Below are positions 13,698 through 62,057 of a stretch of DNA of 64,000 nucleotides, one piece after another. The translations under genes were made by a program, and so were the position numbers. The DNA is taken from the NCBI GenBank assembly GCA_963832225.1, contig CAWHTI010000012.1:690692-754691 (forward strand), written 5' to 3'. The notes under the pieces are model-generated. The model ran no database searches. It was not told the DNA's origin and worked only from the letters and a program-made list of their open reading frames with translations. Position 1 is the first letter of the stretch; every line of letters begins with the position of its first letter. The DNA is from an uncultured Actinomycetes bacterium (GTDB lineage Bacteria; Actinomycetota; UBA4738; HRBIN12).

Positions 13698-16383
13698 GTG
13701 GTGGGGAACTACCGGGCCTCCGTTCCCCTGACGTACTGTGCTGCGATGCGCGACCTGCCCACCGGCACGGTGACGTTCCTGTTCTCCGACATCGAGGGGT
13801 CGACCCGGATGCTGCAGGGGCTCGGGCGCGACGGCTTCGTGCGCCAGCTGGACCGACACGCCGAGATCCTGCGGACCGCGATCGCCGAGCAGGGGGGTGT
13901 CGAGATCCGTACCGAGGGCGACTCGTTCTTCGTGGCGTTCGCATCGGCGGAGGCCGCGGTGAGAACGGCCGTGGCCGCCCAGCGTGGGCTCGCGGCGCAT
14001 CCGTGGGACGACGGAGCCGCCGTTCGGGTCCGGATCGGGATGCACACGGGCGAGGGCGAGCTGGGCGGCGACGACTACGTCGGCATCGACGTCCACAAGG
14101 CCGCCCGCATCGCCGCCAGCGGCCACGGCGGGCAGGTGGTGCTCTCCGGACGCCACGCGGACGTTGCTGGCGGACCGGCTCCCCGACGGCGTCGCTCTCC
14201 GCGCGTTGGGAGCGCACAAGTTGAAGGACTTCGATCGCGACGAGCCGCTGCACGACCTCGTGATCGAGGGGCTGGAGGCAGGGCTTCCCCCCGCTCTCGA
14301 CGGCGGGCGGACGCCGGACGAACCTGCCGGAGCCGCGGACCTCGTTCGTCGGTCGCGGCTCGGCGATCGCGGAGGTCGGTGCGATGCTCGACGACGCCCG
14401 ACTGGTGACGCTTGACCGGCCCCGGCGGCACCGGCAAGACCCGGCTCGCGCTCGAGGTCGCGGCCGCGCGCCTCGATCGGTACGACGAGGTCACGTTCGT
14501 CGACCTGAGCCCCCTCGACGACGCCTCGCTCGTGATGCCGGCGATAGCCGCCGCGTTGCGCGTGCGCGCGACGCCCGGCGCCGACCCCTCGCAGGCGTTG
14601 TACGAGCGGCTGCGCCGGGCAGACCACCTGCTGGTGCTCGACAACCTGGAGCAGCTCGCGTCCGAGGCCTCGTTCGTCGGCGACCTGCTGGATGCGGCGC
14701 CCCAGCTCACGGTGCTCGCCACCAGCCGCATCGTGCTGCACGTGGCGGGGGAGCGGGAGTACCGGGTAGCCCCGCTCGAGCTCCCCGGCGGCGCGGACGA
14801 GCTCGACGTGTCCGCCGATCGCGTCATCGGAGGCGGTGCGTCTCTTCGCGGAACGCGCCTCCGCGTCGGATCCGGGATTCGAGGTGACCCAGGGGAACGC
14901 GGCGGCCGTCGCCGAGATCGTCGCCCGGCTCGACGGGCTGCCGCTCGCCCTCGAGCTGGCGGCGAGCCGGCTTCGCGTCCTCGATCCTGCGACGCTGGCC
15001 GGCCGCCTCGGGGAGCGGCTCCCGCTGCTGACGGGCGGGCCGCGCGACGCGCCCGAGCGCCAGCGGACCCTCGAGGAGACGATCAGGTGGAGCGAGGAGG
15101 CGCTGCCCGACGATGCTCGACGCCTGTTCGCACGGCTCGCCGTGTTCCCCGGTGGGTGCACGGTCGAGACCGCCGAGGCGGCCTGCGGCGCCGACGTCGA
15201 CGTGCTGGACGGGCTCGGCGTGCTCATGGATCACAGCCTCGTCCGGCGGCTGGACGCGCCGGACGGATCGGTGCGGTTCACGATGCTCGAGACGATCCGC
15301 GAGTACGCCGCCACACGGTTCGCGTCGTTCGACCCCGACGAGCGGTCCTCGATCGAGCGGTTGCAGGCCGAAGGGGTCCGAGACCTCGCCGAGCGCGCGG
15401 AACCGCACATCACGGGGCAGCAGCAGCTCCGCTGGCTGGAGACGCTCGACCTCGAGCTCGAGAACATCCGGGCCGCGCTCGACCGAGCCGAACACGCCAC
15501 GGATCCCGACGAGGTCGCGACGGGGTTGCGTACGGCGGCGGCGCTCTGGCGCTACTGGCAGCGACGCGGCCACTTCGCCGAGGGGCGGGCGAGGCTCGAG
15601 CGACTCCTCTCGCTGCCGGGAGCGCAGGCACGCGACGCCCCCCGAGCTCGGGCGCTCGGCGCGCTCGGCAGCATCGACTACTGGCTCATGAACTACGACG
15701 CGATGAGCGCGTCGTACGAGGAGGCCGCCGACATCGCCCGTGCGCTCGGGGATCGTCGGCTCCTCGCCAGAGCGCTGCTCAACCTGTCGTTCACGCCGGT
15801 CTCCTCGGGACACCCCGAGGAAGCGCAGCGGCTGCTCGAGCAGTGCCTGGAGGTCGTCGAGCCGGACGACCTCTCGATGCAGGCGGAGATCTGGAGCGGC
15901 ATCGGGTTCGGGCGGCTCCTCTCTGGGGACGCGGTCGGGGCGACGGAACCGATCGAGCGGAGCATCTCTCTGTACCGCGAGGTCGCCGAGCAGCTCGCGC
16001 TGTGCGAGGCGTTGCTCGCGCTGACCGGGGTGTACCTGGTGAGCGAGCGCCTGGACGAGGGCCTCCCGTATCTCGCCGAGGCCGCGGCGATCGCGAGCGC
16101 CTCCGGGAACCCGATCCTGCTGGCGACCGTTCTGTTCCCCCACGCCCTGCTCGCGAACATCATGGGGCGCCCGAGCCGGGCCGCGCTTCTGGTCGGCGCG
16201 TCGAACCGGCTCGAACGCGACTACGACGTGCACTTCCCCGAGATCGGCCTCGCGTTCTTCGGGGACCCCGCCGATCAAGCGCGCGCCGCACTCGGCGACG
16301 AGGCGTTCGAGCACGGGCAGGCCAAGGGCGACGCGATGACGCTCGCGCAGATGATCGAGCTCCTCGAGGACGACGCCGAGTAG
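13698..16383 (+). pseudogene. adenylate/guanylate cyclase (class III CHD) - STAND ATPase - TPR regulator, at least 3 frameshifts (about 14148, 14405, 14830)
   Basis: CHD motifs FLFSDIEGST, GDSFFVAFAS, GIDVHKAARIAASGHGGQVVLS; Walker A TGPGGTGKTRLAL; TPR-like region to 16383; protein continuity only recovered by switching among frames of ORFs 13698..14408, 13984..14415, 14412.., 14836..16383. Confidence 0.75.
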
Positions 16384-16475
16384 GTCCCTCGGTCCCGCCA
16401 CGGACCTCGCCGTCGAGCCGGCCCGACCACCACCGGAGCGGTACGCTCGGAGCCACCGGCCGAAGGAATCCGCAC

Positions 16476-19400
16476 GTGTCAGTCCCGGATCCGAACACGA
16501 CGGCGCTCGCGCCGCTGCTCGAGGCCTTCTCCCCGATGGCGCTGCACGTCCGCCGATCCTCGGGCCCGGTCGTCGGTCGCCAGGCCGAGCAGGACGCGAT
16601 CCGTCAGGAGCTGGCGTCGGCCACCGCCGGCCACCTCGCGGGGCTGACGTTCGAGGGCGAGCCCGGCATCGGCAAGACGCGGCTGCTGCTCGCCGCGGCT
16701 GAGATGGCCTCGGCGGCCGGGTTCACGACGATCGCGGTGACCGCCGACGAGGAGCTCCGCGGCCCGTTCCTGCTCGCGCGCTCGGTCCTGGGATCGGCGG
16801 CCTCCGCGCCGGTCGCCCGGGACCGGCCCGAGGTCGGCGAGGCGCTCACCCGGGGCCTCGACGCGATGTCGGGTCAGGACGATCCGGGCCTCGCGACGCT
16901 CCCCGCCGATCGCCGCCTGCTGCGCACGTTCGATCTGGGCGCCGTCGCGTTCCGAGCCGCCGCCGCCGAGGCGCCGCTCGCCGTTCTCATCGACGACCTC
17001 CAGTGGAGCGACGACGACAGCCTGCGTCTGCTCCGCTACGTGGTTCGCTCCATCGCCACGAGCCCGATCTTCCTGCTGTTCGCGATCCGCCCGGAGGAGC
17101 TCGCGCTCGTGACCGAGGCGGTGAACCTGCTCGCCGACATGGAGCGGATGGGCCTCGTCCGGCGCATGAGGGTCGACCGGCTCACGCGGCCCGAGACGCG
17201 GACGCTGATCGCCTCGGTCCTCGGAGGTCCGGTCGACGAGGGCGGCGCGTCGGTCATGCACACGCAGGCCGAGGGCGTCCCGTTCATCGTCGAGGAGATG
17301 GCCCGCGCCTACCGCGACGGCGGGATGGTGCAGCAGATCGACGGCGTGTGGAGGCTCGCCGGCAACACCGAGCGGCTCGTGCCCTCGGCGGTGCGGACGC
17401 TGATCTCGCGGCGCACCGCGCATCTGCCCGACGAGACGAAGGGGCTGCTCGCCGTCGCCGCGGTCCTCGGCCGCCGGTTCAGTCTGGAGGACCTGCGCGA
17501 GGTCGAGGTCCGCGTGGACACCGAGCGGCCCGCTCCGGATCCCGACCTGCTCGCGCGTACCCTCGTCCCGGCCGTGACCGCCGGGCTGCTCGCCGAGCAC
17601 GACGAGGCTGCGGCCGCGGACTACAGCTTCCTGCACGAGCAGGTCCGTGACTTCGCCGCGACGACGCTCACGCCGGCGCGACGTCGTGCGATCCATGCGG
17701 CGATCGTCGAGCTGCTGCTGTCGGGCGAGCCGTCGCCCGCGAGCCTGCCCCTGCTCGCCCACCACGCGAAGGCGGCGGGCAACGCCGCCGTGTGCGTGCG
17801 GTTCTCGGTGGAGGCGAGCCGCAACGCGCTCGCCGCCAACGCTCCCGAGGAGGTCCTGCGCGTCGTCGAGGTGGCGCTCCCGTCTGCAGCCTCCCCCAGG
17901 AGCGGCTCGAGCTGCTGGAGGCGCGCGATCGCGCGTTCGACATGCTCCGGCGGCCGACGGACCGCCTCGAGGGCCTCGCCGAGCTGAGCGCGCTCGCGGA
18001 AGCGCTGGGCAACTCGCACCTGGAGCTCGACGTGCGACTGCGCCGCGCTGCCGCGCTCCGTACGGCCGAGGAGTACGACCGGGCCGTCGAGCTCGCGCGC
18101 GAGGTCCGGCCGCTCGCGAAGGAGCGGGGCGAGGCCGACGTGGAGCTCGCCGCGTGCATGGAACTGGGGCAGGACCTCCTGCGTGCGACCGCGGGCGAGG
18201 CGTTCGTCCCCACGCCTCGCGAGGTGGACCTGGACGCGGCGGAGGAGGCGTTCCGTGCAGCGGTCGAGCTGGCCCGCGAGCTCGGCGACGACGCCACGCT
18301 CGCCACGGCCCTGCGGGAGATCGCGGTCGTGCAGCTCGGCCGGATCCGCGCGTGGTTCGTCGAGCAGTTGGAGATCGGCGCCCATCTCCCGATCGTCCAA
18401 CGGATCGCCGCCGGCGAGGCGCTCGAGGACATCGTGCTCGAGTTGCCGATCGCGCCGATCGTGCAGGAGGCGCACGAGCTGCTGCAGCAGGCGCTCGAGA
18501 TCTTCGAACGGCTCGGCGACCGGCGCGGGGCGATGGCCACGATCATCGCGATGGGCTACCACAGCTGGGCGGCCGACATCCATCTGGGTTCGGGCTCGGC
18601 ACGCCACATCGAGGAGATCCGCCGGCTCACGTCGAAGGCGAAGGCGTTCACGAACGAGAGTGAGCGCGCGGCGTTCGAGGCGCAGATGCTCTTCGGCGTC
18701 CACGTGTTCGCCCGGGCCAAGCTGATCCCCGACCTCGCGATCTCCAGGGGGGAGCAGGCCTGCCACCACGCGCGGGAGATGGGGGATCGCTCGCTGGAGT
18801 TCGCGGCCGCCGGCGGCACGGCGATGGCGTACCTGGACCTGGGCGACGTGGCGCCGGCGGAGCCCTGGATCGAGCGCGCCGCCGCGATCGCGTCGGAGCA
18901 CCCGACGCCGCTGCGGGCGCGCCGTCTGGAGACGTGGCGCGGGATGGTCGCCGCCACTGCGGGGGACGCCGGGGGGATGCGGACGCACCTCGAGCGGGCG
19001 GTGCAGCTCGCGGCCGAGTCGGGCCTGCCCGCGGCGAGGTGCGAGGCGCTGGCCCGCCTGGCGTTGGAGGCGGCCCGGCTGGGCGCCGAGGGAGCCGACG
19101 ACGACCTCCTCGACGCTGCGGAGCGGGCGGCGAACGAGGCGAGGGAACTGGCGGCCGCGATGCCCGGGCATCCGCCGTGGGGTGCGGAGGCAGATGCGGC
19201 ACTGGCCCGGATCGAGCTCGCGCGGGGTCGGGAGGACCGGGCCGCCGGCCACGCCCGCAGCGCGCTGCACGCGATCGAGTCCGCGAGGCACGAGGACGCG
19301 CACCTCGACGTCGCGGTGCCGGTGGCGAACGCGCTCGTCGCGGCCGGGGCGCCGGAGTGGGAGATGCTCCGTCCGTTCCTGCAGCAGACCCTCGCGATGA

Positions 19401-19717
19401 TCGCGCAGCGGACCGTGGACGAGGACGTGCGCGTGCGGTGGTTCCGCGGCCCGATCGGACGCGAGCTGACGCGGCTCGTGGGACCGGTCGACCCGCTGCC
19501 CGCCGCCGACGGCGTCAAGAAGGCGAGCAGGACGGGGGCGCGGACGCGGCGCTGTTGAAGAGCCTGATACAGGGGAAGACGAACGGTGAGATCGCCGAGG
19601 AGCTCGGGATCGACGAACCGTCCGTCGCGACGACGACTCGCGGAGCTGTACACGCACATCGGCGCGTCGTCGCGCGCCGAGGCCACCGCGTTCGCGTTCC
19701 GGGAGCGGGTCCTGTGA
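16476..19717 (+). pseudogene. large ATP-binding LuxR-family regulator (ATPase-TPR-LuxR HTH), about 3 frameshifts (about 17880, 19540, 19630)
   Basis: GTG start with GAAGGA RBS; Walker A GEPGIGKTRLL, Walker B LIDDLQWSDDDS; long TPR region (ORF 17792..19558); LuxR HTH split over two further frames (LLKSLIQGKTNGEIAEELGIDEPSVA ... RLAELYTHIGASSRAEATAFAFRERVL stop at 19717). Confidence 0.75.
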
Positions 19718-19720
19718 GGC

Positions 19721-19756
19721 GCGGGTGGGAGGGGCGCCGCGGGTGGGAGGGGCGCC
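19721..19756. repeat. perfect 18-bp tandem duplication (gcgggtgggaggggcgcc x2) carrying a GGGAGG Shine-Dalgarno, immediately upstream of the ferredoxin-cyclase start codon
   Basis: Read directly: gcgggtgggaggggcgcc gcgggtgggaggggcgcc gaag ATG. Confidence 0.8.
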
Positions 19757-19760
19757 GAAG

Positions 19761-20495
19761 ATGCCGCTGAGGGCCCGCGTCGACCGTCATCGCTGCATCG
19801 GTGCAGGCACGTGTATCACGATCGCTCCCACCGCCTTCGACTGGCACGAGGGGGACTTCGCGAAGGCCGGCGTCATCGACGCGGCGAGCGTCGAGGACGA
19901 GGTGCTCCGCGAGGCGGCGCTCGCCTGCCCGACGGCCGCCATCACGGTGGAGGAGGTCGAGGAACTGTTGCCGTGGCAGCTACGGGGCAGGGAGGCGCCG
20001 CGTCGCGTCGAGAAGACGTTCATGTTCACCGACATCGAGGGGTCGACGAACCTCGTGGAGGCGCTCGGAGACGAGGCGTGGCAGGGCGTGCTGCGGTGGC
20101 ACGACGAGACGCTGCGTCTGCTCTTCGCCGAGCACAAGGGCGAGGAGGTCGTCGCGACCGGCGACGGGTTCTTCGTGGGGTTCGACTCGCCGGATCAGGC
20201 GCTCGCGTGCGCCGTGGCGATCCAGCGCCAGCTCGCGGAGCATCGGCGGACGGCCGGGTTCGCGCCGAAGGTGAGGATCGGTGTGCACGCCTCCGGTGCG
20301 ACGCAGGTGGGGAAGAACTTCTCGGGCAAGGGCGTGCACGAGGCGGCCAGGATCGCGGCGCTCGCCGGTGGCGACCAGATCCTGTCGAGCCGAACGACGG
20401 CCGCCGACGGGAGGTTCCCGATCTCGGAGGCGGAGACCGTCACCCTCCGAGGGACGTCCGAGCCCGTCGAGATCGTCACGGTCGACTGGTCGTAG
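19761..20495 (+). CDS. ferredoxin-domain / class III adenylate cyclase (CHD) fusion protein
   Basis: N-terminal single-cluster ferredoxin motif (RHRCIGAGTCITIAP ... ALACPTAAI), then CHD motifs FMFTDIEGSTNLVE, GDGFFVGFDSPDQA, KVRIGVHASG, GVHEAARIAALAGGDQILSS. Confidence 0.8.
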   Translation: MPLRARVDRHRCIGAGTCITIAPTAFDWHEGDFAKAGVIDAASVEDEVLREAALACPTAAITVEEVEELLPWQLRGREAPRRVEKTFMFTDIEGSTNLVEALGDEAWQGVLRWHDETLRLLFAEHKGEEVVATGDGFFVGFDSPDQALACAVAIQRQLAEHRRTAGFAPKVRIGVHASGATQVGKNFSGKGVHEAARIAALAGGDQILSSRTTAADGRFPISEAETVTLRGTSEPVEIVTVDWS

Positions 20496-20536
20496 CGAAC
20501 CCCGGGCTGGCGTCGGCGGTTCGCAGGTGGTCGTTC

Positions 20537-20917
20537 TCAGGTCGCGGCAGCCGGCAGGGGAGCGAGGACGCAGAACTCGTTCCCCTCGGGATCGACCATC
20601 ACGACCCAGGTGACGTCGTCGGGCTGTCCGATGTTGACGCGACGCGCACCGAGGTCGATGAGGCGCTTGACCTGCGCATCCCGATCGACGGGGCGGAGAT
20701 CGAGATGCAGCCGGTTCTTCACCGTCTTCGCCTCCGGCACCTTCACGAACAGGATGTCCGGCGCGACATCGACGGGCGGGCTGCCCTCCGGCGGCTCGAT
20801 GACCCACTCCTCGGCGCTCTCATGGGTGATGCGCCATCCCAACGCCTCGGACCAGAAGCGGGCGAGCCGTTCGCAGTCGGCGGCATCGATCACGCTGCAC
20901 TGGATACCGATGTCCAC
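20537..20917 (-). CDS. VOC/glyoxalase-family protein
   Basis: Glyoxalase-like beta-alpha-beta-beta-beta motifs (VIDAADCERLARFWSEALGW, NRLHLDLRPVD, WVVMVDPEGNEFCVL); start uncertain (GTG at 20917 chosen; the ORF extends to ATG at 21124). Confidence 0.5.
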   Translation of the reverse strand: MDIGIQCSVIDAADCERLARFWSEALGWRITHESAEEWVIEPPEGSPPVDVAPDILFVKVPEAKTVKNRLHLDLRPVDRDAQVKRLIDLGARRVNIGQPDDVTWVVMVDPEGNEFCVLAPLPAAAT

Positions 20918-21111
20918 GGGACGAGGATACGCGTCGTCGAGCCACGTCGGGGACCCAGCGCCCTCGGCGTGGTCCCGAACGGATCCGCGGATGGGTCCCG
21001 GGACGATGGTCCCATTGCCGCCCTCGCGCAGGGGTGACAGGTTTGCTGAGAAGTCGGCAGCGCGCGTCTTCACAAGCTCTTGCGACCACCTACTGCCCGA
21101 GGAGGTTCGAC

Positions 21112-21693
21112 ATGGTGACACCACGTTCCCGGCGACGCCTGGTCGTCGTTCTGCTGGCGGGGCTGACCGCCGTCCTGGCGCCCGCGACGTCCGCGTCGGC
21201 CGCGAAGTCGCTCTTCTTCGAGGAGACGGCCGCTGCCTTCTGGGCGGTCCCCCACGAGTGCGCCGACGGCTCGACCGTGGAAGCCACGCTGCTGGTCCAG
21301 ACCACGCGCGACTTCGAGTCGCCCGACACGGAGGACGCCGACCCCACGGCCCGGGTGCAGTACCTCGCCGTCTGCCCCGACGGCACGTCGTTCAGCTGGG
21401 GCGCGATCGTGCCCGCGACCATCACGAGCACGAACAAGCTCAAGAGCGTCAGCGTTTCCGGATCGGGGACCGCCACCGACATCCTCGGTGAGACCCATCA
21501 GGTCTCCTTCGACGTCACATGGACGGCGGTCGGACCGTTGGTGACGACCGTCAACGGGCCGGGGAGCAAGCGGCAGCAGCGGGAGGCCACCGCGACCGGT
21601 CAGGTGACGTTCGACGGTGAGGTCCTCGTCAACGGCCCGGCCAACCACCCGACCCGGCCGGCCCCGTTCATCCGCATCGACACGGAGAAGTAG
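21112..21693 (+). CDS. secreted hypothetical protein
   Basis: GAGGAGG RBS; Sec signal peptide MVTPRSRRRLVVVLLAGLTAVLAPATSASA; 193 aa. Confidence 0.55.
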   Translation: MVTPRSRRRLVVVLLAGLTAVLAPATSASAAKSLFFEETAAAFWAVPHECADGSTVEATLLVQTTRDFESPDTEDADPTARVQYLAVCPDGTSFSWGAIVPATITSTNKLKSVSVSGSGTATDILGETHQVSFDVTWTAVGPLVTTVNGPGSKRQQREATATGQVTFDGEVLVNGPANHPTRPAPFIRIDTEK

Positions 21694-21747
21694 CGGGCCC
21701 GGCCGACCCACGAGTTCGGCTGCGTCGTGATTGACGATGCTCGAGCG

Positions 21748-22099
21748 TCAGGCGCTGACCTTGTCGAGCATCTGCAACAGGTCGTGGGCGGCCTGCTCGA
21801 TCTCCTTGTGACGCCACTCGCTCGCGCGGTACACGCACGCCATCAGGCCGGTCCGGTGCACCCGCCGGAAGTCCCCGTAAACGAAGCCGTAGCGTCCCTT
21901 CGTCTCGTCGGACGCGCGCGTCCGTCAGAGCGAGGAACCACTCCCCGTATTCGGTCCAGGAATGGGACTCGAGGAAGTCGTTCTCGGACGGGGTCGTTGG
22001 CTGCACCTCACCCCAATCGCTGTCGAGCACGTACTGGTGCGCCTCGATCAGGTGCCGGGCCTTGGCCACGGCAGGCTTGTTCAGCGAATACGTCGCCAT
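21748..22099 (-). pseudogene. small conserved hypothetical protein with an internal frameshift near 21910
   Basis: N-terminal 62 aa (MATYSLNKPAVAKARHLIEAHQYVLDSDWGEVQP...EWFLALTDA) in one frame; plausible C-terminal continuation (KGRYGFVYGDFRRVHRTGLMACVYRASEWRHKEIEQAAHDLLQMLDKVSA, stop 21748) only in another frame. Confidence 0.4.
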
Positions 22100-22147
22100 G
22101 TTTCGGAGGTACCCGGCACGGAACGGCCGAAACGCCTGGGTGGCAGT

Positions 22148-23485: not shown

Positions 23486-23567
23486 CCTAGTGTGGCCGAT
23501 CCGGCTCGAAGTTCGGTCCAGTAGGCTTGCCGTGAGGGCGGCGCATGATGGATCGAGGGCGGTGTGC

Positions 23568-24893: not shown

Positions 24894-24965
24894 CCGATCT
24901 CCGCGTGGTCAGGTCGGGCCCGAGACTCATTGCGCGACCACTGCGCCCCCGCATAGTCTCCGGCG

Positions 24966-28390: not shown

Positions 28391-28469
28391 GCGAGCTCGA
28401 CCAATCTGTCAGCCGAGCCCGCGGACTTCGACCCCCCGGGTCCTGGCTTCATCGATCGGGGAGGAGCGG

Positions 28470-29653: not shown

Positions 29654-29732
29654 CGGTCGATGCTCGCACCGGCCACCGACACGCTCGGCGTCTCGAGTGG
29701 AGGATGGGGTGGCGCGACGGTGACCGCCTAGC

Positions 29733-31898
29733 ATGGAGCTCGATCCCGCGGCGTCGGCGATCATGCGAGGATCGGCGGAGGGAGTCCGAGCCATGGAACA
29801 GCCAGCGACAGCTTCCCGCCGCGAGGGCGTCATCGACGTCTCCGACCGGCACGGACGCTTCCGGCGCCCGACCGGAGCGCCGCCGCCACTACCCAAGAAG
29901 ATCGGCGCCACCGGTGTCGCCCGACTGGCCGTGGTCGTGCTCGTCGTCATCCCGGCCTGCATCTGGCTGCACTACGATCCTGTGCCGTTGGACCGGTTCG
30001 ATGCCGCGATCACCCGTGCGGTGGTCTCACTGCGTGTTGGGTGGCTCGACACGCTGGCCCGATCCGTCAATGCCGCCGCCTCGCGGTACGGGCTCGCGCT
30101 CCTCAGCGTGCTGACGGTGGTGGCCGTTGCCGCGTTCCGTCGGTGGCGGCACCTCACCCTCTTCTTCATCGGCGTGGCGCTCGTGGGACTCTCAGCGGAA
30201 GTGCTGTTGCTACTCGCGGCGCGGCCGCGCCCGTTCGATGTGACGATCATCGGGGCGTGGGAGGGCTTCTCGGCCCCCTCGATCCCCATGACGGGTCTCG
30301 CGGTCGTGGTCGTCGGCATCGCGTACATGCTCGTGATCCCTGGCCGCCCCCGGATGGTCGCCAAGTGCATCGGTCCGGTCGTGCTGATCCTGGCCGCCCT
30401 CCTCCGCGTGTACCTCGGGATCGACCACTTCACCGACGCGATGTTCGGGGTGATCCTCGGCGTCTCGATCCCGGTCGCCCTCTTCCGCGCGTACGCGCCG
30501 AACGACATCTACCCGGTGCGATACGGCCCACAGGGCAAGGCGGCCCACCTCGACGTGTCCGGCGCGCGTGGCGAGGCGATCAGGGTCGCCATGAAGGAGC
30601 AGCTCGGCTACGAGGTCCTGACCATGAAGCCGGTCGGGCTCGAGGGCTCGGGCGGCTCCACGCCCCTGAAGATGCGGGTCGTCGACGATCAGGGCGTCGA
30701 GCGGTCGGTCTTCGCGAAGCTGTACGCGAAGAGCCATGTGCGGGCGGACCGCTGGTACAAGCTCGGGCGCACGATGCTCTACGGCCGCCTCGAGGACGAG
30801 ACCCCCTTCAGCACGGTCCGCCGCTTCGTGGAGTACGAGGACTACACCCTGCGACTCCTCGGCGAGAAGGGCTTCTCGACGCCCGAGCCGCTCGACATCG
30901 TCGAGATCACGCCCGAGCGCGAGTACCTGATCGCGATGGAGTTCTTCGAGGACGCGGTCGAGATCAGCGAGGTCGAGGTCGACGAGCAGATCATCGACGA
31001 CGGATTGCAGCTGATCCGCCGGATGTGGGACGTCGGGCTGTCCCACCGCGATATCAAGCCGGCGAACCTGATGGTGCAGGACGGGAGGCTGCGCCTGATC
31101 GACGTGTTCTTCGTGCAGGTACGTCCATCGCCGTGGCGCCAGGCGGTCGACCTCGGCAACATGATGCTGGTGCTCGCCCTGCGCTCGAACCCGGAGGTCG
31201 TCTACGAGCGGGCCCTCGCCAATTTCACACCCGAGGAGCTGTCCGAGGCGTTCGCCGCGACCCGGGGCGTGGCCAGCCCCACGCAGCTGCGGACATCGTT
31301 GAAGGCGGACGGACGCGGCCTGCTGGAGACGTTCCGGGAGCTCGCACCGTCCCGTAAGCCCATCGGGATCCAGCGGTGGAGTGTCCGCCGCGTGGTGTTG
31401 ATCCTCTGTACGACGCTGTTGCTGTGCCTGGCCGTGCTGACGGGCATCGCGCTGTTCATCCCCTCGCGCGGCGACGTGTGGAACGCCACGTGCGGCACGG
31501 GCCGCACGATGCAGCTGATGGCGCAGGCGGTCCCGACGGCGGCGAAGCTGCCGTGCATCGGCGACCTCCCGCTCGGTTGGGGCACGGAGCAGGCGACGGT
31601 TGCCCGAGGCAGGGCGACCTTCACCGTGGGGATCGGGTCGGACCTGGTGAGCCCGGTCACCGTGACGTTGGTGGAGACCTGTCCGCCGGACAGCGCGCTC
31701 CAGTCGATCCCGATCGAGGGTGGATGTGTCACCTACCAGGTGCCGCCAGTGACCGAGGCCGGGTCGGTGCCGTCGTTCGACCACGGGGGAGGCCTCGCGT
31801 TCATCGACCGGGATGTGCTCGTCGCCGCAGTCGAGCAGGACGAGGATCTCGTGCTCTGCGGCGCGCACGCTCCGTGCGCCCCGGCACCCGCACGATGA
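29733..31898 (+). CDS. PAP2-like membrane phosphatase domain fused to protein-kinase-like domain, C-terminal TM and Cys-containing extracytoplasmic domain
   Basis: 6 TM N-terminus with PAP2-like motif 3 (RVYLGIDHFTD) but degenerate motif 2 (PSIP instead of PSGH); kinase-like Gly loop GLEGSGGS, VFAKLY lysine, catalytic loop HRDIKPANLM, IDVFF; TM (VVLILCTTLLLCLAVLTGIALF) then domain with 6 Cys; 721 aa intact; true start may be ATG at 29793. Confidence 0.7.
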   Translation: MELDPAASAIMRGSAEGVRAMEQPATASRREGVIDVSDRHGRFRRPTGAPPPLPKKIGATGVARLAVVVLVVIPACIWLHYDPVPLDRFDAAITRAVVSLRVGWLDTLARSVNAAASRYGLALLSVLTVVAVAAFRRWRHLTLFFIGVALVGLSAEVLLLLAARPRPFDVTIIGAWEGFSAPSIPMTGLAVVVVGIAYMLVIPGRPRMVAKCIGPVVLILAALLRVYLGIDHFTDAMFGVILGVSIPVALFRAYAPNDIYPVRYGPQGKAAHLDVSGARGEAIRVAMKEQLGYEVLTMKPVGLEGSGGSTPLKMRVVDDQGVERSVFAKLYAKSHVRADRWYKLGRTMLYGRLEDETPFSTVRRFVEYEDYTLRLLGEKGFSTPEPLDIVEITPEREYLIAMEFFEDAVEISEVEVDEQIIDDGLQLIRRMWDVGLSHRDIKPANLMVQDGRLRLIDVFFVQVRPSPWRQAVDLGNMMLVLALRSNPEVVYERALANFTPEELSEAFAATRGVASPTQLRTSLKADGRGLLETFRELAPSRKPIGIQRWSVRRVVLILCTTLLLCLAVLTGIALFIPSRGDVWNATCGTGRTMQLMAQAVPTAAKLPCIGDLPLGWGTEQATVARGRATFTVGIGSDLVSPVTVTLVETCPPDSALQSIPIEGGCVTYQVPPVTEAGSVPSFDHGGGLAFIDRDVLVAAVEQDEDLVLCGAHAPCAPAPAR

Positions 31899-31943
31899 CA
31901 AAGCTCGTTGAGCTCCGCCAGCAATGAGCAGGGATCGCGTGCG

Positions 31944-32525
31944 TCACCTCACCGGTTCGAATCGAAGATGGGTCGCTCCCGGCGTCTCGATCGAACTCGT
32001 CCTCCTCAGCTCGATCCGTCCGGGGCCGAGACCCTCGAAGAGTCTGGTGCCGCGGCCGAACAGGACGGGGATGAGGTGGAGCTGCATCTCGTCCAGCAGT
32101 CCCGCCTTCAGATACTCCCTGATGATGTTCGCTCCGCCCCAGATGCCCACGTCCCTCTCGCCGGCGGCGGCACGAGCCAGTTTGAGGGCGGCCCCGATCC
32201 CATCCCTCACGAAGGTGTAGGTCGTACCGCCCTGCATGGGCAGGGGGTCTCGCTCCTTGTGCGTCACGATGAACACCGGCATCCCGAACGGGGGAGGATC
32301 GCCCCACGGCTCGAACCCGACGTCGAACATCCGCTTCCCGATCAGGACCGCCCCGGTCGAGGCATAGATCTCGTCCACGATCGCGGCATCGGTCTCGGTC
32401 TTCGCATCGAACCGCCAATCGTGAAGGCGATCACCATCGTCCCCCATCCCGTTGCCGACCCGCACGTTCGGTCCGCTGATGAACCCGTCCAGCGACATCG
32501 AGATCTCGCATGTGACCTTACCCAT
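31944..32525 (-). CDS. dihydrofolate reductase-family protein (RibD C-terminal reductase domain family)
   Basis: MGKVTCEISMSLDGFISGP ... GAVLIGKRMF ... WGGANIIREYLKAGLLDEMQLHLIPVLFGRG typical of bacterial RibD-C/DHFR-like family. Confidence 0.75.
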   Translation of the reverse strand: MGKVTCEISMSLDGFISGPNVRVGNGMGDDGDRLHDWRFDAKTETDAAIVDEIYASTGAVLIGKRMFDVGFEPWGDPPPFGMPVFIVTHKERDPLPMQGGTTYTFVRDGIGAALKLARAAAGERDVGIWGGANIIREYLKAGLLDEMQLHLIPVLFGRGTRLFEGLGPGRIELRRTSSIETPGATHLRFEPVR

Positions 32526-32565
32526 CACGGCCCTCCTCAACGGATCGTCCGTGAGAGGGTAGACC

Positions 32566-33534
32566 TCAACTCGCCGCGGCCGGACCCCAGTCGATGAACC
32601 GCGGTCTGAGCGACGAGAACGGCAAGACTGTGTGCTCATCGTGGCCGTTGGGGCGAACGATCATCAATGCGCTCTGGTCCCCATGCTCGAGCCGGTAGGT
32701 GATCCACTTGCCGTTCGGCGAGTAGCCGCCGGCGAGGGCGAGCCGATCGGGCCTGCGCAGATGTGTCAGGTATCGCAGGCCGGTCCCGTCGGGCCGGATC
32801 GTGAGGACGTTCGCCGGGTGATCGGGGTTGCCCGCGTTGTCACTCATCACGAGCCGGGAGCCATCCGGCGCCCAGTCGTGCTTGAACGTGATGCCCCACA
32901 AGGTGGGCGTCACCTGTCGGGCGTCGCCCCCGTCGATGCTCACCGCGAACAGCGCCGTCAGGTCACCGGGCGTGAACGACAGGAACGTGACGGTCTGTCC
33001 GTCGGGTGACACCTCGGCGGTTGCTGCGCCCGCCGGACCTGTCCCCAGGAGACGCCGTCCGGTGCCGTCGCGGTTCATGATCCAGACCGTCTCTTCGTCC
33101 GCGATCGGGTCGTACCGCGAGAACACCAAATGCTCACCGTCGGGAGTAAACGCCGGATCGGTCTCGCAGCCGCCGGGGGTCTGTGACGGGATGATGTGCC
33201 GGTGGGTCCCGTTCGCGCGGATCAGCGCGATCGCGCACTCGTTGCGGGAGAAGGCCAGCCACCGTCCATCGGGGGACCAGTCGGGAGTCGAGGCTTCACC
33301 GGGGCCATGCGTGATCTGCTGCAGATGGAGACCGTTGCGTCGGACCGTGAAGAGCTGGATGCCGTCGTCGGTCTCAGCGCTGAACGCGATCAGCCCGTTC
33401 TCGGCGGGGAACGCGGCATGGGCCGGCATCTGGCTCACCAGCAGTGAGACCACGACCATCCCGACCGCCAAGCTGAACGTGATCAGGATCGACTGCATCA
33501 ACCGAAGTGTGCCGCCGCTACGTGACGCCCCCAT
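32566..33534 (-). CDS. secreted TolB-like PD40 beta-propeller protein
   Basis: GGAGG RBS; signal peptide; repeated PD40 units (DWSPDGRWLAFS, FTPDGEHLVFS, VSPDGQTVTF, WAPDGSRLV, YSPNGKWITY). Confidence 0.7.
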   Translation of the reverse strand: MGASRSGGTLRLMQSILITFSLAVGMVVVSLLVSQMPAHAAFPAENGLIAFSAETDDGIQLFTVRRNGLHLQQITHGPGEASTPDWSPDGRWLAFSRNECAIALIRANGTHRHIIPSQTPGGCETDPAFTPDGEHLVFSRYDPIADEETVWIMNRDGTGRRLLGTGPAGAATAEVSPDGQTVTFLSFTPGDLTALFAVSIDGGDARQVTPTLWGITFKHDWAPDGSRLVMSDNAGNPDHPANVLTIRPDGTGLRYLTHLRRPDRLALAGGYSPNGKWITYRLEHGDQSALMIVRPNGHDEHTVLPFSSLRPRFIDWGPAAAS

Positions 33535-33798
33535 GGGAGGACCCCCTTTTCCCCGCCCGGTGTGATCGGCGGATCGTGAAGCTCCCGAGGTGCGGGCGGC
33601 CGAGGGGCGCTCCTGCTTGAGTTGCACGCTAGACCGGTCGGCGCATCGGGTCAACGGGACCTTCCGGGTCCCGGGAAGGTGATCCGGCGGCCGTGGCAAC
33701 GCACTGGTGATGTTCGACGGTGAGGAGGTACCGCGTGTCGTCGTCGCACGCCGCCTGAGGCTGGCCCACGGTATGGCGCCAGATCGGGCGGGCTCGCG

Positions 33799-34701
33799 TC
33801 AGGGCAGCACGAGGACGCGTTGGACCGGCGGGAGCCCGGAGGCGAGCTCGTTCCAGGAGGCGCCCTCGTCGGTCGAATCGTAGAGGTGCCCGTCGGAGGT
33901 GCCGAACGAGGCGAGGGTTCCGTCGGGCAGTGCGTCCAGACAGTAGGTGTCGATGTTGTCGTGGAACCACTCGGGGAGCCCGGCGCGGCAGCGCTCGAAC
34001 GTGCCCCCGGAGAGGTCGCCCCGATACACGGCGGCCCAGCCGCCGCGAGGTCCGTTCGAGGCGGACATGAGGACACTTCCACCGCAGACCGCGACGGCTC
34101 GCGAGTAGCGGGCCTCGAGGCCATCGGTCCGGTACGCCCAGGTGGCACCTCGATCGGTACTCACCGCGAGCCCGCCCGCACATGCCGCGAGCACCATCCC
34201 CGCTGCGGTCGTGACGTGATGGACGTCGGCGTCGACGTCGATCGTGGGTGTCCACGTCCCGCCCTCATCGTCGCTCCGAAGGATCCCGCCGACGTGGACG
34301 TTGACGTAGATCTCGTCTTCCCAGTTCGCCATGGAGCGGGTGTCGGGCGGTCCGCCCCAAGGGGTGTGCCAGATCTCGCGGCCGCTCGTGTGGTTGAACG
34401 CGTCGACCGGTTCGAGCGCCTCGCCGTCGAGCCGGAACAACCGCGCCTCCGACGAACCCACGAAGACGTCGGCACCGATACCGGTGACACAGGTGGCCCG
34501 AAGGGCGTCGAGATCCGTGACGTGGGACCAGTCGCCGCCGGTCGCGTGCCAGAGCTCGGACGCGTCGACGATCTCCCAGAGCTCCGTGCCTGCGCGTCCG
34601 AGCGCCGTCACGGACCGACCGACGTGGTCCTTCCCTCGCAGCTGGCCGTCATCGTCGAACGTGTGCATGCCGTTTCGTGTCGCCACGAGGATCGTTGGCA
34701 T
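33799..34701 (-). CDS. BNR/Asp-box-like beta-propeller hypothetical protein
   Basis: 300-aa intact ORF with Asp-box-like motifs (SDDEGGTW, STDRGATW, STDEGASW). Confidence 0.5.
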   Translation of the reverse strand: MPTILVATRNGMHTFDDDGQLRGKDHVGRSVTALGRAGTELWEIVDASELWHATGGDWSHVTDLDALRATCVTGIGADVFVGSSEARLFRLDGEALEPVDAFNHTSGREIWHTPWGGPPDTRSMANWEDEIYVNVHVGGILRSDDEGGTWTPTIDVDADVHHVTTAAGMVLAACAGGLAVSTDRGATWAYRTDGLEARYSRAVAVCGGSVLMSASNGPRGGWAAVYRGDLSGGTFERCRAGLPEWFHDNIDTYCLDALPDGTLASFGTSDGHLYDSTDEGASWNELASGLPPVQRVLVLP

Positions 34702-34843
34702 GGTCCCATGCTCTCACCTCCACGGAATCGCCCTCGAGCGGCCCAGGTGTTGTCTCAGCAGCGTCAGCCTGTCGGGTGGGAACGACAAGGCAATGAAGAG
34801 GCTCGACGCGCCGAGCGCGTGGCCGGCCTTTCGCTACACGTCC

Positions 34844-35428
34844 TCAGGGCTCGCGGACGAATGGCGCGCTTGTGTAGAGCGCAGTCGTGTACAGGAGGTG
34901 CGTCTTGAGGTTCTCGGACGTTCCCGTCTCCTTCTGATGCACGAGCTCGAGCGACAGCGTGTCGTTGGAGAGCGTCGCGTCGAACACGTACGCATCTCCC
35001 AGATCCGGGAGTGACAGGCGTAGCTGCCCGTCGGCGAACGCGTAGGTGCCGGACTCATCGACCGCAAGGGGGAAGTGCACATCTTCTCTCGAATGGCTGA
35101 AGTCGGAGGAGTCGAACTGGAGCTCGAAGGTGATCTCTGGAGGAGATCGTTGATCCTTGATCCACCCGTCGACAGCATGCTCATCCAGCTCGGCAGCCAG
35201 CATCGCGGCACGGATGTCCTCGATCGGGACCGGCCCAGTTGACCAGACGCCCTCCAAGGATTCTGCCTCGACCGAGGTGGAGGCGCTCCCACTCTGCGCC
35301 GGGGATGTGGCCCCTTCCGTCCGCGTCGAGGAGTCGCACGACGCCGACCCCATCAACACGAATACGATGAGCGCCACGGGGCCGAGGGCGCTGCGCATTG
35401 GTCCCGACATCCTCACAAGCTCGATCAT
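34844..35428 (-). CDS. lipoprotein, unknown function
   Basis: Signal peptide with lipobox (LIVFVLMGSASC); 194 aa. Confidence 0.5.
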   Translation of the reverse strand: MIELVRMSGPMRSALGPVALIVFVLMGSASCDSSTRTEGATSPAQSGSASTSVEAESLEGVWSTGPVPIEDIRAAMLAAELDEHAVDGWIKDQRSPPEITFELQFDSSDFSHSREDVHFPLAVDESGTYAFADGQLRLSLPDLGDAYVFDATLSNDTLSLELVHQKETGTSENLKTHLLYTTALYTSAPFVREP

Positions 35429-35609
35429 GGACCCTGCCCGATTTGCCGTCGAACCGCCTCAAGAGAGATACCGCACGCATTGACCGTTCCACCACGGGTG
35501 GTTACGTTCACGACCTGCTTGCTGGGTGATTTCGTGACGCCCTGCCGTCGGAGCGAGGGGTGGTAGCCGCCGCACGAGGATCGTCCCGAGACGAGAGGGC
35601 GGAGGCGCG

Positions 35610-36851
35610 ATGTTTCGGATGCGACATGCGACTCGGATGACCGGGGAGAACACGTACCAACCAGGAGGTCTGGCGAGCACCGCTGTTGCCGCGACGACCG
35701 CGTTGCTGGCGGCGGGCCTGCTCCTGTGGCCGGCGGATGCAGCTCGAGCCGCGACACCCACGTGCTCCGGTCGGGCCGCGACCATCGTGGGCACCTCCGG
35801 AGACGACAACCCTCTGCCCGGGACGTCCGGGGACGACGTCATCGTCGGACGGGGAGGAGACGACGTGATCCGAGGAGGCGGTGGCAACGACCTCATCTGT
35901 GGCAAGGGCGGCGCGGACACGCTCAGCGGCGACGCTGGGGACGATGACCTCCTCGGGGGGGTCGGTGAGGACGTTGCGGACTATTCACAGTCGTATTTCC
36001 CATCGACGGCCGACGGGGTGAACGTCAACCTCGGCACGGGGCAGGCGACGGGCGAGGGAACCGACCAGCTGACCGGCATCGAGGGCGTGAACGGCTCCGA
36101 CTACGGCAGCGACATCCTCACCGCGAGCGACGCGGGCTCGACGTTGGACGGAGGCTTCGAGGCCGACACCCTCATCGGCGGCGCGTCGGCAGACGTCCTC
36201 CGTTCGGGTGCGACCGACGCCGAGCCCGATACGGTGGAGGGAAGGGGTGGCGACGACACGCTCGATCTCGGCGACCAGGATGTGCTCTCGTATGCCCACG
36301 CTCCGAGTGCCGTCCACGTCGATCTCGGTCTGTCGACGGTGAGCGGCGGCGACGGCGCCGACGTCCTCATGGGTTCGCCCCACTACGTCATCGGATCCAG
36401 GTACGGCGACGACATCTTCGGCGACGAGAACGGAAACATCCTCGTCGGCGGTCCCGGACGCGACACGATGGACGGCGAAGGCTATTACGACACGCTCTAC
36501 CCGGGCCGCGGCGACGATACGCTTGACGGTGGTCCTGGATCGGACACCGTGGTCTACGGCGACGGGACGGCGACGGCGGGCGTGACGGTCGATCTCAAGC
36601 TCGACTCAGTGCTCGGTGGTTCAGGCAACGACATCGTGAGCAGTATCGACGCCGTCGTCGGCACGGAGTTCGACGATGTCATCAAGGGCGGCGGCCATTC
36701 CAACTTCCTGTCCGGACTCGCGGGTGATGACAGGTTGAGGGGCCGGAGAGGGACTGACTTCCTGAACGGCGGTGAGGGGAACGACCGGGTGATCGGCGGA
36801 AACGGATTCGATAGTTGCGAGGGCGAGTTCACCCTCTCTTGCGAATCCTGA
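35610..36851 (+). CDS. secreted calcium-binding protein with hemolysin-type (RTX) GGxGxD repeats
   Basis: Signal peptide; more than 12 nonapeptide repeats (GTSGDDVIVG, GRGGDDVIRG, GGGNDLICG, GKGGADTLSG, GGPGSDTVVYG ...); 413 aa. Confidence 0.7.
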   Translation: MFRMRHATRMTGENTYQPGGLASTAVAATTALLAAGLLLWPADAARAATPTCSGRAATIVGTSGDDNPLPGTSGDDVIVGRGGDDVIRGGGGNDLICGKGGADTLSGDAGDDDLLGGVGEDVADYSQSYFPSTADGVNVNLGTGQATGEGTDQLTGIEGVNGSDYGSDILTASDAGSTLDGGFEADTLIGGASADVLRSGATDAEPDTVEGRGGDDTLDLGDQDVLSYAHAPSAVHVDLGLSTVSGGDGADVLMGSPHYVIGSRYGDDIFGDENGNILVGGPGRDTMDGEGYYDTLYPGRGDDTLDGGPGSDTVVYGDGTATAGVTVDLKLDSVLGGSGNDIVSSIDAVVGTEFDDVIKGGGHSNFLSGLAGDDRLRGRRGTDFLNGGEGNDRVIGGNGFDSCEGEFTLSCES

Positions 36852-36924
36852 GTCGCCTGCCGACGGTGACCCCGAATGTCAGACGATGGGCGGCCGCAGG
36901 GGTCGTTCGGATGGTGAGCGCTTC

Positions 36925-38292
36925 ATGATCGAGATGCCCGAGACGCGGTACGTGAAGACCGCAGACGGCACCCGGCTGGCCTACCAGGTCTTCGGCAGCG
37001 GCAAGCGAGACATCCTCTACCTGCCCGGACACATCGGGCATGTGGAAGTGCATTGGGAGGACCCGCTCTACGCAGCGTTCCTTCGGGGTCTCGGGTCGTT
37101 CGCGCGGGTCATCGCCGTCGACCGACGCGGTCAGGGATTGTCCGATCGGCTGTCTCCGGGGGACCTGCCGCCGCCCGAGGTCCTGGTCGACGACGTCGTT
37201 AGCGTGATGGCAGAGATCCGATCCCACGACACGGTGGTGCTGGGTCACGACGAGGGCGCACAGATCGGTGTCTTGCTCGCGGCGAGCCACCCGGACGCGG
37301 TGCGCGGCCTGATCCTCTACGGGAGCTCACCGAGCGGCGCGTGGTCGCCGGCGACGCCCTGGGGTGATACCGAGGAGGAATGGATGTCGTGGTTGGCGTG
37401 GGTCATCCCCAGGTGGGGCAGCATGGAGAGCGCCATCGTGGACGTCCAGGAGGCCGCCCCGGAGCGTGTCGGCGACGAGGCGTTCACCCGCTGGGTCGCG
37501 AAGCTGTACCGCTATGGCGTGAGTCCCAACGCCGCCTCCGCTCTGTATCAGCTGGCGCTCGGACTCGACGTCACTGATGTGCTGCCGGCCGTGAGGGTGC
37601 CGACGATGGTGGCGCACCGGACGGGCGACCGGATGACGCCGATGGAGGCCGGTCGATTCATGGCCGCACGGATCCCCGAGGCCAGGTTCGTCGAACTCCC
37701 CGGCGAGGATCATTTCCCGAACGGTCCCTCGTGGGAGGCACTCGTGGACACGATCCGCGGCTTCGTCGACGGATCGCAGGACCGGCCGACGGACAGCCGG
37801 CGGTTGGCCACCGTGCTGTTCACCGACGTCGTGGGATCGACTGCGCGCTCCGCCGAGCTCGGCGACGCCGCGTGGAAGGTGATGCTCGAGTCCCACCACT
37901 CAGCCGTGAGAAGGGAGCTCGAGCTCCACGGTGGCCACGAGCTCAGCACCGCGGGAGACGGCTTCTTCGCGACGTTCGGGGGACCTGCGGCGGCTGCGGA
38001 GTGCGCTCGCGCGATCGCCGACGCCGTGAGACGGATCGGGCTCGAGATCCGGGCGGGGGTCCACACCGGCGAGGTCGAGACGATCGACGGCGAGGTGGGT
38101 GGCATCGCCGTGACGATCGGCGCCCGGATCGGCGCGTTGGCCGGGCCGTCGGAGGTGCTCGTCTCCTCGACCGTGAAGGACCTGACCATGGGATCGAGAC
38201 TCACGTTCGAGGACGCGGGCCGGCATCAGTTGAAGGGGGTGCCAGGCCGCTGGCGTCTCTTCAAGGTTGCGGAGCCTTCTTTGGAGACGTGA
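36925..38292 (+). CDS. alpha/beta-hydrolase-fold / adenylate cyclase (CHD) fusion protein (second LipJ-like paralog)
   Basis: Hydrolase region (VDRRGQGLSD, LGHDEGAQIGV); CHD (VLFTDVVGSTARS, GDGFFATFGGP, IRAGVHTGEVE, GIAVTIGARIGALAGPSEVLVS). Confidence 0.8.
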   Translation: MIEMPETRYVKTADGTRLAYQVFGSGKRDILYLPGHIGHVEVHWEDPLYAAFLRGLGSFARVIAVDRRGQGLSDRLSPGDLPPPEVLVDDVVSVMAEIRSHDTVVLGHDEGAQIGVLLAASHPDAVRGLILYGSSPSGAWSPATPWGDTEEEWMSWLAWVIPRWGSMESAIVDVQEAAPERVGDEAFTRWVAKLYRYGVSPNAASALYQLALGLDVTDVLPAVRVPTMVAHRTGDRMTPMEAGRFMAARIPEARFVELPGEDHFPNGPSWEALVDTIRGFVDGSQDRPTDSRRLATVLFTDVVGSTARSAELGDAAWKVMLESHHSAVRRELELHGGHELSTAGDGFFATFGGPAAAAECARAIADAVRRIGLEIRAGVHTGEVETIDGEVGGIAVTIGARIGALAGPSEVLVSSTVKDLTMGSRLTFEDAGRHQLKGVPGRWRLFKVAEPSLET

Positions 38293-38331
38293 CCTCAGTT
38301 CGCGTGCAGAGCGAAGGCTGAACAACGAGGT

Positions 38332-38367: not shown

Positions 38368-38375
38368 TCGGTGGC

Positions 38376-46370: not shown

Positions 46371-46374
46371 TCGG

Positions 46375-62050: not shown

Positions 62051-62057
62051 CGGGTCG

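Follow-up and report, generated by a model that had tools for sequence, protein, structure and literature searches.

Divergent class III cyclase genes and a conserved STAND-LuxR/ferredoxin-cyclase operon in a 64-kb segment from an uncultured actinobacterium

Class III nucleotide cyclases form their active sites by dimerisation of cyclase homology domains (CHDs), and expansion of this family is known from mycobacteria. Here we analyze five genes encoding such domains, together with two STAND-type LuxR regulators, in a 64-kb stretch of DNA (the window) from an uncultured Actinomycetes bacterium (GenBank assembly GCA_963832225.1, contig CAWHTI010000012.1, positions 690,692 to 754,691), where an earlier note, made from the sequence alone, had proposed a cyclic nucleoside monophosphate (cNMP) signalling neighbourhood assembled by duplication and domain shuffling. 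Several described cyclases resemble the proteins encoded at this locus. Rv0386, Rv1358 and Rv2488c of Mycobacterium tuberculosis are CHD-ATPase-LuxR fusions that constitute the “CHD+LuxR” subfamily (PMC3466318, PMC2447327). Rv1900c (LipJ; PDB 1YBT/1YBU), an adenylyl cyclase of the same species, joins an N-terminal alpha/beta-hydrolase to a C-terminal CHD, and Ma1120 of Mycobacterium avium (PDB 4WP3 and others) is a minimal class III adenylyl cyclase. The ferredoxin-associated class IIIb adenylate cyclases of proteobacteria, such as Q132R4 of Rhodopseudomonas palustris, consist of a haem-binding anchor of six transmembrane segments, a ferredoxin and a CHD (Beltz et al. 2016, PMC4821796).

Taken as a single joint explanation, we consider it probable that the segment is chromosomal and derives from an uncultured high-GC soil actinobacterium in whose lineage class III cyclases have undergone strong expansion, and that the locus combines old, independent paralogues with one fixed operon, its broken reading frames reflecting indel errors. 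The gene map of the cyclase-bearing span and its edges was built from frame plots of GC content at third codon positions (GC3) and Pfam scans. The features at issue are the following, assigned by Pfam unless another source is given:

9164–11996, plus strand: regulator 1, AAA_16-TPR-GerE (STAND-LuxR)
13698–16383, plus strand: cyc1 (STAND cyclase 1), CHD-AAA_22/NB-ARC-TPR
16476–19717, plus strand: regulator 2, AAA_16-TPR-GerE (STAND-LuxR); tblastn and Pfam, start codon set by alignment to the related locus L008
19721–19756, no strand: tandem unit of 18 nucleotides (nt), two copies; read from the sequence and aligned to L008
19761–20495, plus strand: ferredoxin-cyclase, Fer4_13-CHD, 244 amino acids (aa)
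22148–23485, minus strand: Abh1, Abhydrolase-CHD, 445 aa
24966–28390, plus strand: cyc2 (STAND cyclase 2), Zn-ribbon-CHD-AAA_16-TPR
36925–38292, plus strand: Abh2, Abhydrolase-CHD, 455 aa

The cyclase model Guanylate_cyc (PF00211) matches all five genes with 32–53 bits against a gathering cut-off of 21.9, where the earlier note had located them and next to the partner domains it had named, namely NB-ARC/AAA_22-TPR, ferredoxin, two alpha/beta-hydrolases and Zn-ribbon-AAA_16-TPR; its account is corrected as to Abh1, which sits on the minus strand. The matches have E-values of 2e-11 for cyc1 (CHD at 13698–14408), 1.2e-7 for the ferredoxin-cyclase, 3.6e-14 for Abh1 (which also matches Abhydrolase_1/6) and 2.9e-9 for Abh2 (with Abhydrolase_1 at 1.6e-16), and for cyc2 the value improved from 8e-9 (35.8 bits) to 1.9e-16 (60.6 bits) once the gene had been frame-corrected. 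Neither tblastn with the CHDs of related loci nor Pfam scans of the other open reading frames (ORFs) revealed a sixth cyclase in the window.

Catalytic residues were read from the translations and aligned to Ma1120 and Rv1900c, with roles assigned as in the study of Ma1120 (PMC4215837). The metal-binding Asp pair and the transition-state Arg are kept in each of the five CHDs (motifs FxDIxGST, GDG(F/A) and AAR/ASR/GAR), so the claimed recurrence of catalytic motifs is borne out. At the position of the transition-state Asn, only cyc2 has Asn, while cyc1, the ferredoxin-cyclase and Abh1 have His and Abh2 has Thr. The substrate-specifying Lys is kept in cyc2 and corresponds to Arg in cyc1, Val in the ferredoxin-cyclase and Ser in both Abh1 and Abh2; the substrate-specifying Asp is kept in cyc1 and Abh1, corresponds to Asn in the ferredoxin-cyclase and Glu in Abh2, and is uncertain in cyc2. 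The canonical set of Asn plus Lys/Asp is not shared across the five CHDs, with Lys and Asn both found in cyc2 only. Rv1900c (His) and Ma1120 (Ala) deviate likewise at the Asn position, and Ma1120, which lacks the canonical Asn like all window CHDs but cyc2, is nevertheless active (PMC4215837). Because these two proteins deviate alike and one of them is documented as active, the residue pattern gives no argument against catalysis, and the product, be it cAMP or another cNMP, cannot be inferred from it.

Pairwise identity among the five CHDs is 27–52%. Across their CHDs, cyc1 and cyc2 are 29% identical, and they differ as well in NTPase family and N-terminal extension: cyc1 has an AAA_22/NB-ARC ATPase (with HTH_77 precomputed by Pfam in orthologues), cyc2 a Zn-ribbon and AAA_16. 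Abh1 and Abh2 are 44% identical overall and 52% identical across the CHD, but all of the 120 best database matches of Abh2 (48–62% identity) are nearer to Abh2 than Abh1 is, and 60 of these same 120 are nearer to Abh1 than Abh2 is. Given this low identity and the nearer relatives in other genomes, the five genes appear to be old paralogues rather than local duplicates, that is, independent and anciently diverged members of a very large known family. Thus, the proposed origin by duplication and shuffling survives in part: the cluster is dense, and domain shuffling seems valid at a deep, family-wide level only, whereas local duplication does not fit the observed identities. A search of 50%-identity representatives found the CHD subtype of the ferredoxin-cyclase also at the C-terminus of ~650-aa proteins and in many other architectures. 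Candidate “new architectures” carrying the ferredoxin domain in the same set were rejected, most of them being frame-shift chimeras with a LuxR C-terminus, and the true family is narrow. The chimeric library representatives P0363, P0364, P0381, P0411 and P0361 consist of a LuxR C-terminus and a ferredoxin-cyclase joined by frame errors, and they inflate the apparent diversity of architectures. Every one of the five cyclases is presumably dimeric and would be gated by its own partner module.

The only evolutionarily fixed unit of the locus is the operon formed by a gene for a MalT-like AAA_16-TPR-LuxR protein and the ferredoxin-cyclase gene. A scan of GTDB representative genomes yielded 80 loci, nearly all from uncultured soil metagenome-assembled genomes (MAGs) of Actinomycetota/Actinomycetes, with a few labelled Gaiellaceae, Solirubrobacterales, Chloroflexia or Limnocylindria; 79 of them have a recognisable ferredoxin-cyclase, which was used as the anchor. 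The regulator gene lies directly upstream, on the same strand and separated by roughly 5–30 nt, in 76 of the 79 loci, and the pairing persists down to 61% identity of the cyclase and ~50% identity of the regulator. In L008, the closest short-read relative (a MEGAHIT k141 contig, 92% nucleotide identity), cyc1, regulator 2 and the ferredoxin-cyclase are all intact and in the same order. Comparison of synteny in relatives, which the earlier note had proposed as a check, supports this order in L008 and the pair across the lineage, but not the remaining cyclases, which vary. The spacer between regulator 2 and the ferredoxin-cyclase gene contains the 18-nt unit GCGGGTGGGAGGGGCGCC twice in tandem (19721–19756), with a GGGAGG motif resembling a ribosome-binding site, and this duplication shows as a 30-nt insertion relative to L008.

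Judging from their domains, both regulators are STAND LuxR proteins of the MalT/LAL type, with AAA_16, TPR-like repeats and a C-terminal GerE domain; they share domain order (AAA_16, TPR_MalT, GerE) and size with that group. To our knowledge, MalT/LAL regulators have not been described in a fixed operon with a cyclase gene, such as that of regulator 2. Regulator 1, ~32% identical to regulator 2, was recognized on two overlapping ORFs (AAA_16 at 2.7e-18, GerE at 2.1e-12) and has at least one frame break, near 10690. The two ATPase-TPR-LuxR regulators had been described as sitting among the cyclases, which is correct for regulator 2, inside the span, whereas regulator 1 lies just upstream of it. 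Regulator 2 (~1080 aa) is 95% identical to its L008 counterpart at the amino-acid level and 68–73% identical to intact homologues of 1077–1087 aa (tblastn). Its AAA_16 match has an E-value of 2.5e-15; its GerE match after frame correction reaches 20.8 bits, slightly below the cut-off of 23.5, and intact orthologues carry precomputed GerE matches.

The ferredoxin-cyclase is intact, and its length of 244 aa is closely kept among the intact relatives examined (243–244 aa). The ferredoxin domain begins at residue 4 (Fer4_13 at 2e-9, Fer4_15 at 5e-7) and matches the PDB ferredoxins 1ROF, 2Z8Q, 1SIZ and 1DAX at 3e-6 to 6e-4. In its CxxAxxC...CP motif, C12, C18 and C56-P57 never vary and residue 15 is Ala throughout; three-Cys motifs of this kind are typical of single-cluster 3Fe-4S ferredoxins or of 4Fe-4S ferredoxins with an open fourth site. 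The best PDB matches of the protein are Ma1120 (E=5e-23) and Rv1900c (E=2e-18). An AlphaFold2 monomer model, based on a shallow alignment (85–93% identity), gave predicted local distance difference test (pLDDT) scores of 80–97 for the CHD and below 50 for the ferredoxin domain. When proteins are clustered at 90% identity, more than 2500 clusters match the ferredoxin-cyclase, the best 120 at 85–93% identity. The copy in L008 is 98.8% identical in amino acids, with a ratio of nonsynonymous to synonymous substitution rates (dN/dS) of 0.04, and the protein is under very strong purifying selection.

In common with these ferredoxin-associated class IIIb enzymes of proteobacteria (Beltz et al. 2016), this protein has a ferredoxin directly N-terminal to a class III CHD, an arrangement that suggests redox-controlled cNMP synthesis. 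It differs from them in being soluble, 244 aa long and devoid of the six-transmembrane anchor; in its three-Cys single-cluster ferredoxin; in its Ma1120/Rv1900c-like CHD, with Val/Asn/His at the Lys/Asp/Asn positions; and in being encoded downstream of a STAND-LuxR gene. The match to Ma1120 includes the short N-terminal linker of the CHD, but in Ma1120 the Lys101/Asp157 pair is canonical and a ferredoxin domain is absent. Our literature search for soluble ferredoxin-CHD fusions turned up only the membrane-anchored proteobacterial class. The soluble 244-aa ferredoxin-cyclase with its LuxR-STAND neighbour was not found described in that search and is the one mildly novel element of the locus.

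By analogy with its domains, the single-cluster ferredoxin would sense redox state, O2 or NO on behalf of its cyclase, and among the five proteins it is the strongest candidate for such control of cyclase activity; the STAND-LuxR partner would likely be the transcriptional arm. We tentatively propose, as a possibility well short of an even chance, that the operon may be a hitherto unreported cNMP module of soil Actinomycetota, gated by redox state, O2 or NO and present also in MAGs labelled Chloroflexia. In such a module, the Fe-S state would switch the cyclase and the STAND-LuxR protein would provide the transcriptional output or act as a physical partner. If so, it would be an analogue of the mycobacterial CHD-ATPase-LuxR fusions, but split and equipped with a sensor. 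The operon is abundant in soil metagenomes and is a testable candidate for a system by which uncultured soil actinobacteria couple the sensing of Fe-S redox state to cNMP signalling and transcription.

The two STAND cyclases resemble the Rv0386-type fusions in having a CHD at the N-terminus, then a STAND-type P-loop ATPase and helical repeats, and the presence of LuxR-type STAND regulators in the same neighbourhood can be counted as a further likeness. They are not members of that subfamily, however: unlike the Rv0386 type, the frame-corrected cyc1 and cyc2 proteins, and likewise their orthologues, have no GerE/LuxR domain (Pfam), the LuxR regulators of the window carry no CHD, with the cyclase encoded as a separate downstream gene with a ferredoxin, and cyc2 has an additional N-terminal zinc ribbon. 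Frame-corrected cyc1 is 877–893 aa long (CHD, AAA_22/NB-ARC ATPase and TPR) and has intact orthologues of 890 aa (P0241, 90% identity) and 877 aa (P0243, 80% identity). Frame-corrected cyc2, at ~1137 aa, comprises Zn_Ribbon_1 (E=1e-6), the CHD, AAA_16 (84.5 bits after correction) and TPR, and is 34–42% identical to an intact protein of 1088 aa in locus L002. We considered L002 and L003, each having a STAND cyclase gene on the upstream side and a hydrolase-CHD gene on the downstream side, as orthologous loci and rejected them, the genes being only 34–42% identical to those of the window. From domain identity, the TPR arms of cyc1 and cyc2 would serve as ligand sensors, and ATP-driven STAND oligomerisation would bring the N-terminal effector CHDs together. 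In locus L010 of a relative (5672–7837), a SulP-STAS transporter carrying a cNMP_binding domain lies ~2 kb from the cyc1 orthologue; it is a possible cyclic-nucleotide effector and has no counterpart in the window.

Abh1 and Abh2, whose reading frames are intact in the window, belong to the Rv1900c/LipJ type, with the same order of an N-terminal alpha/beta-hydrolase and a C-terminal CHD, although their host is an uncultured actinobacterium distant from M. tuberculosis. The CHD of Abh1 matches PDB 1YBT with E=1e-53 over the whole domain and has the same D/H/R catalytic signature, that is, Asp and Arg together with a non-canonical His where the transition-state Asn would be expected; the two differ at the Lys position, where Abh1 has Ser and Rv1900c has Asn. 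Abh2 departs from Rv1900c in its Glu at the Asp position and Thr at the Asn position; its best full-length homologues are 48–62% identical. A further difference from Rv1900c is that Ser is missing from the nucleophile elbow of both hydrolase domains, which reads GLNDG in Abh1 and GHDEG in Abh2. Since the nucleophile is absent, these domains may bind ligands instead of being catalytic, and the motifs suggest that they either are non-catalytic sensors or use Asp as the nucleophile. The hydrolase fold would act as it does in Rv1900c/LipJ.

The earlier note had taken the two STAND cyclases to be the decayed copies. Reading frames are indeed broken in these genes, but also in both regulators, so that all four STAND genes are affected, and in genes unrelated to cyclases. 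Relative to L008, the seven lesions of cyc1 (+1 at 14148, 14280, 14412 and 14817) and regulator 2 (−1 at 17893 and 19514, +1 at 19630) are all changes of a single nucleotide, and in cyc2 the frame is broken at five or more places, near 25180, 25330, 25797, 26470 and 27004, two of them within the CHD. The stop at 14406–14408 in cyc1 was considered as a nonsense mutation and rejected, as two indels flank it and the short segment they enclose is out of frame; inspection of all three frames, together with the alignment to L008, revealed no nonsense codon in the broken genes. Splicing of the frames yields full-length proteins (877 aa for cyc1, 1137 aa for cyc2, ~1080 aa for regulator 2) with increased domain scores. 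Compared with L008, cyc1 has a dN/dS of 0.27 and regulator 2 one of 0.16, and the ratio stays at 0.09–0.31 in every segment without a rise downstream of any break.

Further comparisons extend beyond these genes. About seven frame breaks lie inside ABC sugar-transporter genes, in a stretch of 3 kb (45100–48100; a substrate-binding protein and two permeases). A second contig, L007 (ENA ERZ25039588 contig_105577, with Flye-style naming), is 99.5% identical to window positions 31871–39374 with five single-base gap positions, and in it two 1-nt deletions cause Abh2, intact in the window, to be annotated as a truncated protein of 367 aa. Of the 30 long-read Microflora Danica “contig_” assemblies among the related loci, 10 have the regulator or the ferredoxin-cyclase split, as against none of ~46 others, most of which have short-read contig names (Fisher test, taken as 10/30 versus 0/48, p=2e-5). 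With no nonsense codons, unchanged dN/dS, intact genes in L008, differing indels in L007, breakage confined to long-read assemblies and lesions in unrelated ABC genes, the frame breaks are very likely single-base errors of long-read (Flye-style) metagenome assembly and not decay. The alternative, that the four STAND genes are being lost from this strain through real and recent frameshifts, would account for the concentration of breaks in some genes and their absence from neighbouring ones, and for the several indels lying outside homopolymer runs, but we judge it distinctly improbable: the broken genes show indels only, encode full-length corrected proteins without truncation and bear no sign of relaxed selection on either side of a break, which is not the picture of pseudogenes, and the same lesions recur in genes of unrelated function, differ in a nearly identical contig and are missing from the closest short-read relative. 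The claim that the STAND cyclases are decayed is thus most likely wrong. More generally, indel noise in long-read metagenome assemblies can imitate “decaying paralogues”, and its marks are indels only, the same lesions in unrelated genes, dN/dS unchanged past the breaks and intact short-read relatives.

The clustering of cyclases is real and lies at the upper end for the lineage, but its composition is not a conserved unit. Across the flanks of the 79 anchored loci, there is about one extra cyclase gene per 28 kb, and within ±10 kb of the ferredoxin-cyclase there are none in 53 loci, one in 19, two in 6 and three in 1. The window stands at the top of this distribution: three extra cyclases lie inside ±10 kb, and one more is 16 kb away. 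The density of extra cyclases per 10 kb is 0.42–0.45 up to 5 kb from the pair versus 0.17–0.23 at 5–10 kb; several types are represented, namely cyc2-like genes, ~650-aa CHD proteins, hydrolase-CHD fusions and cyc1-like genes. One could read this as an integrated cNMP signalling island in which the five cyclases and the LuxR regulators form one co-selected, multi-input module, with, for example, a common cNMP pool read by STAND-LuxR. The extreme density, the enrichment next to the LuxR/ferredoxin-cyclase operon, the retention of the triple cyc1-LuxR-ferredoxin-cyclase in L008 and the occurrence, close to the pair, of other STAND cyclases or of hydrolase fusions in L002, L003 and ~25 more loci would agree with such an island. 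It is nonetheless unlikely, given that the extra cyclases vary between genomes in identity, order and strand, that the cyc1 orthologue of L010 lies in an unrelated gene context, that unrelated genes on both strands intervene (glyoxalase, NuoF-like, DinB, PAP2/kinase-like, RTX and others), and that the window ORFs scanned include no gene for a cNMP-binding, GAF or phosphodiesterase protein. Far more remote still is an anti-phage or conflict system, with the cyclase-STAND-TPR proteins acting as NLR/Avs-like sensors or as Pycsar-like cyclases that make a nucleotide alarm signal. The combination of an effector, a STAND NTPase and TPRs does resemble the logic of bacterial NLR-type defence proteins, and the CHD of cyc2 matches the PADLOC PycC model with E=1.4e-15. 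However, the PADLOC matches reflect the generic cyclase fold only, the other four proteins scoring 1e-4 or worse or not at all; there is no adjacent gene for a cNMP-binding effector and no cNMP-binding protein among the scanned window ORFs, so that the cyclases do not qualify as Pycsar; and orthologues 80–90% identical, under purifying selection and in chromosomal contexts, are unlike fast-diversifying defence islands.

We accordingly favour the explanation in terms of old independent paralogues, one fixed operon and indel errors, under which the cluster is an ordinary though dense case of class III cyclase family expansion. Several points weigh against it. Cyclase density is above the norm, three extras being found in 1 of 79 loci and extras being about twice as common within 5 kb of the pair as at 5–10 kb, so some functional co-location of cyclases may exist. 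The partner-domain mechanisms are deduced from the identity of the domains, and the attribution of the frame breaks to assembly comes from comparison of assembled sequences and not from reads. Moreover, some indels lie in C or T runs (14280, 14412, 17893), but several lie outside homopolymers (19630 and 14817 among them), and the breaks are patchy, with none in the genes examined over ~16 kb (28.9–45 kb) and about seven in the following 3 kb.

As to the origin of the segment, the GC content of the window is 64–74%, and its relatives are Microflora Danica and SMAG MAGs labelled “Actinomycetota/Actinomycetes”, a few of which carry a Gaiellaceae or Solirubrobacterales label. A PLSDB megablast with positions 19590–24000, run with a plasmid origin in mind, gave no match, and an exact look-up gave no identical record for the Abh2 or ferredoxin-cyclase protein of the window. 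The other genes mapped between and beside the cyclases are as follows, assigned by Pfam except for the unknown ORF:

20537–21124, minus strand: Glyoxalase_6 gene
21034–21693, plus strand: unknown ORF
~23600–24893, plus strand: NuoF-like protein
28859–29962, minus strand: DinB-like protein
29733–31898, plus strand: PAP2/kinase-like protein
31944–32639, minus strand: RibD_C gene
32566–34701, minus strand: PD40 and BNR proteins
35610–36851, plus strand: RTX protein
38376–39214, plus strand: ArsR-like and AHSA1 genes

The NuoF-like gene between Abh1 and cyc2 (Complex1_51K, SLBB, NADH_4Fe-4S) stands alone, with no further complex I genes close by. The 34 substitutions that distinguish the window from L007 cluster at 32097–32629 and 38240–39157, except for one at 36577, and these two clusters suggest strain-level recombination or local population heterogeneity. 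Farther downstream, each of the ABC-transporter genes at 45100–48100 is spread over two to four frames, yet codes for recognisable conserved sequence. The Pfam match of the ORF at 54374–54958, directly behind a PD40-repeat ORF, to an alpha-amylase is confined to the C-terminal part (profile positions 337–445 of 446, plus C-terminal domains); the ORF may be a fragment or reflect rearrangement or mis-assembly. Finally, pairs of ORFs on the same strand overlap or meet at one stop codon at 52306–54314 (PD40/PD40), 32566–34701 (BNR/PD40) and 60491–63644 (unknown/thymidylate-kinase-like), and these may be further single genes split by frame breaks.

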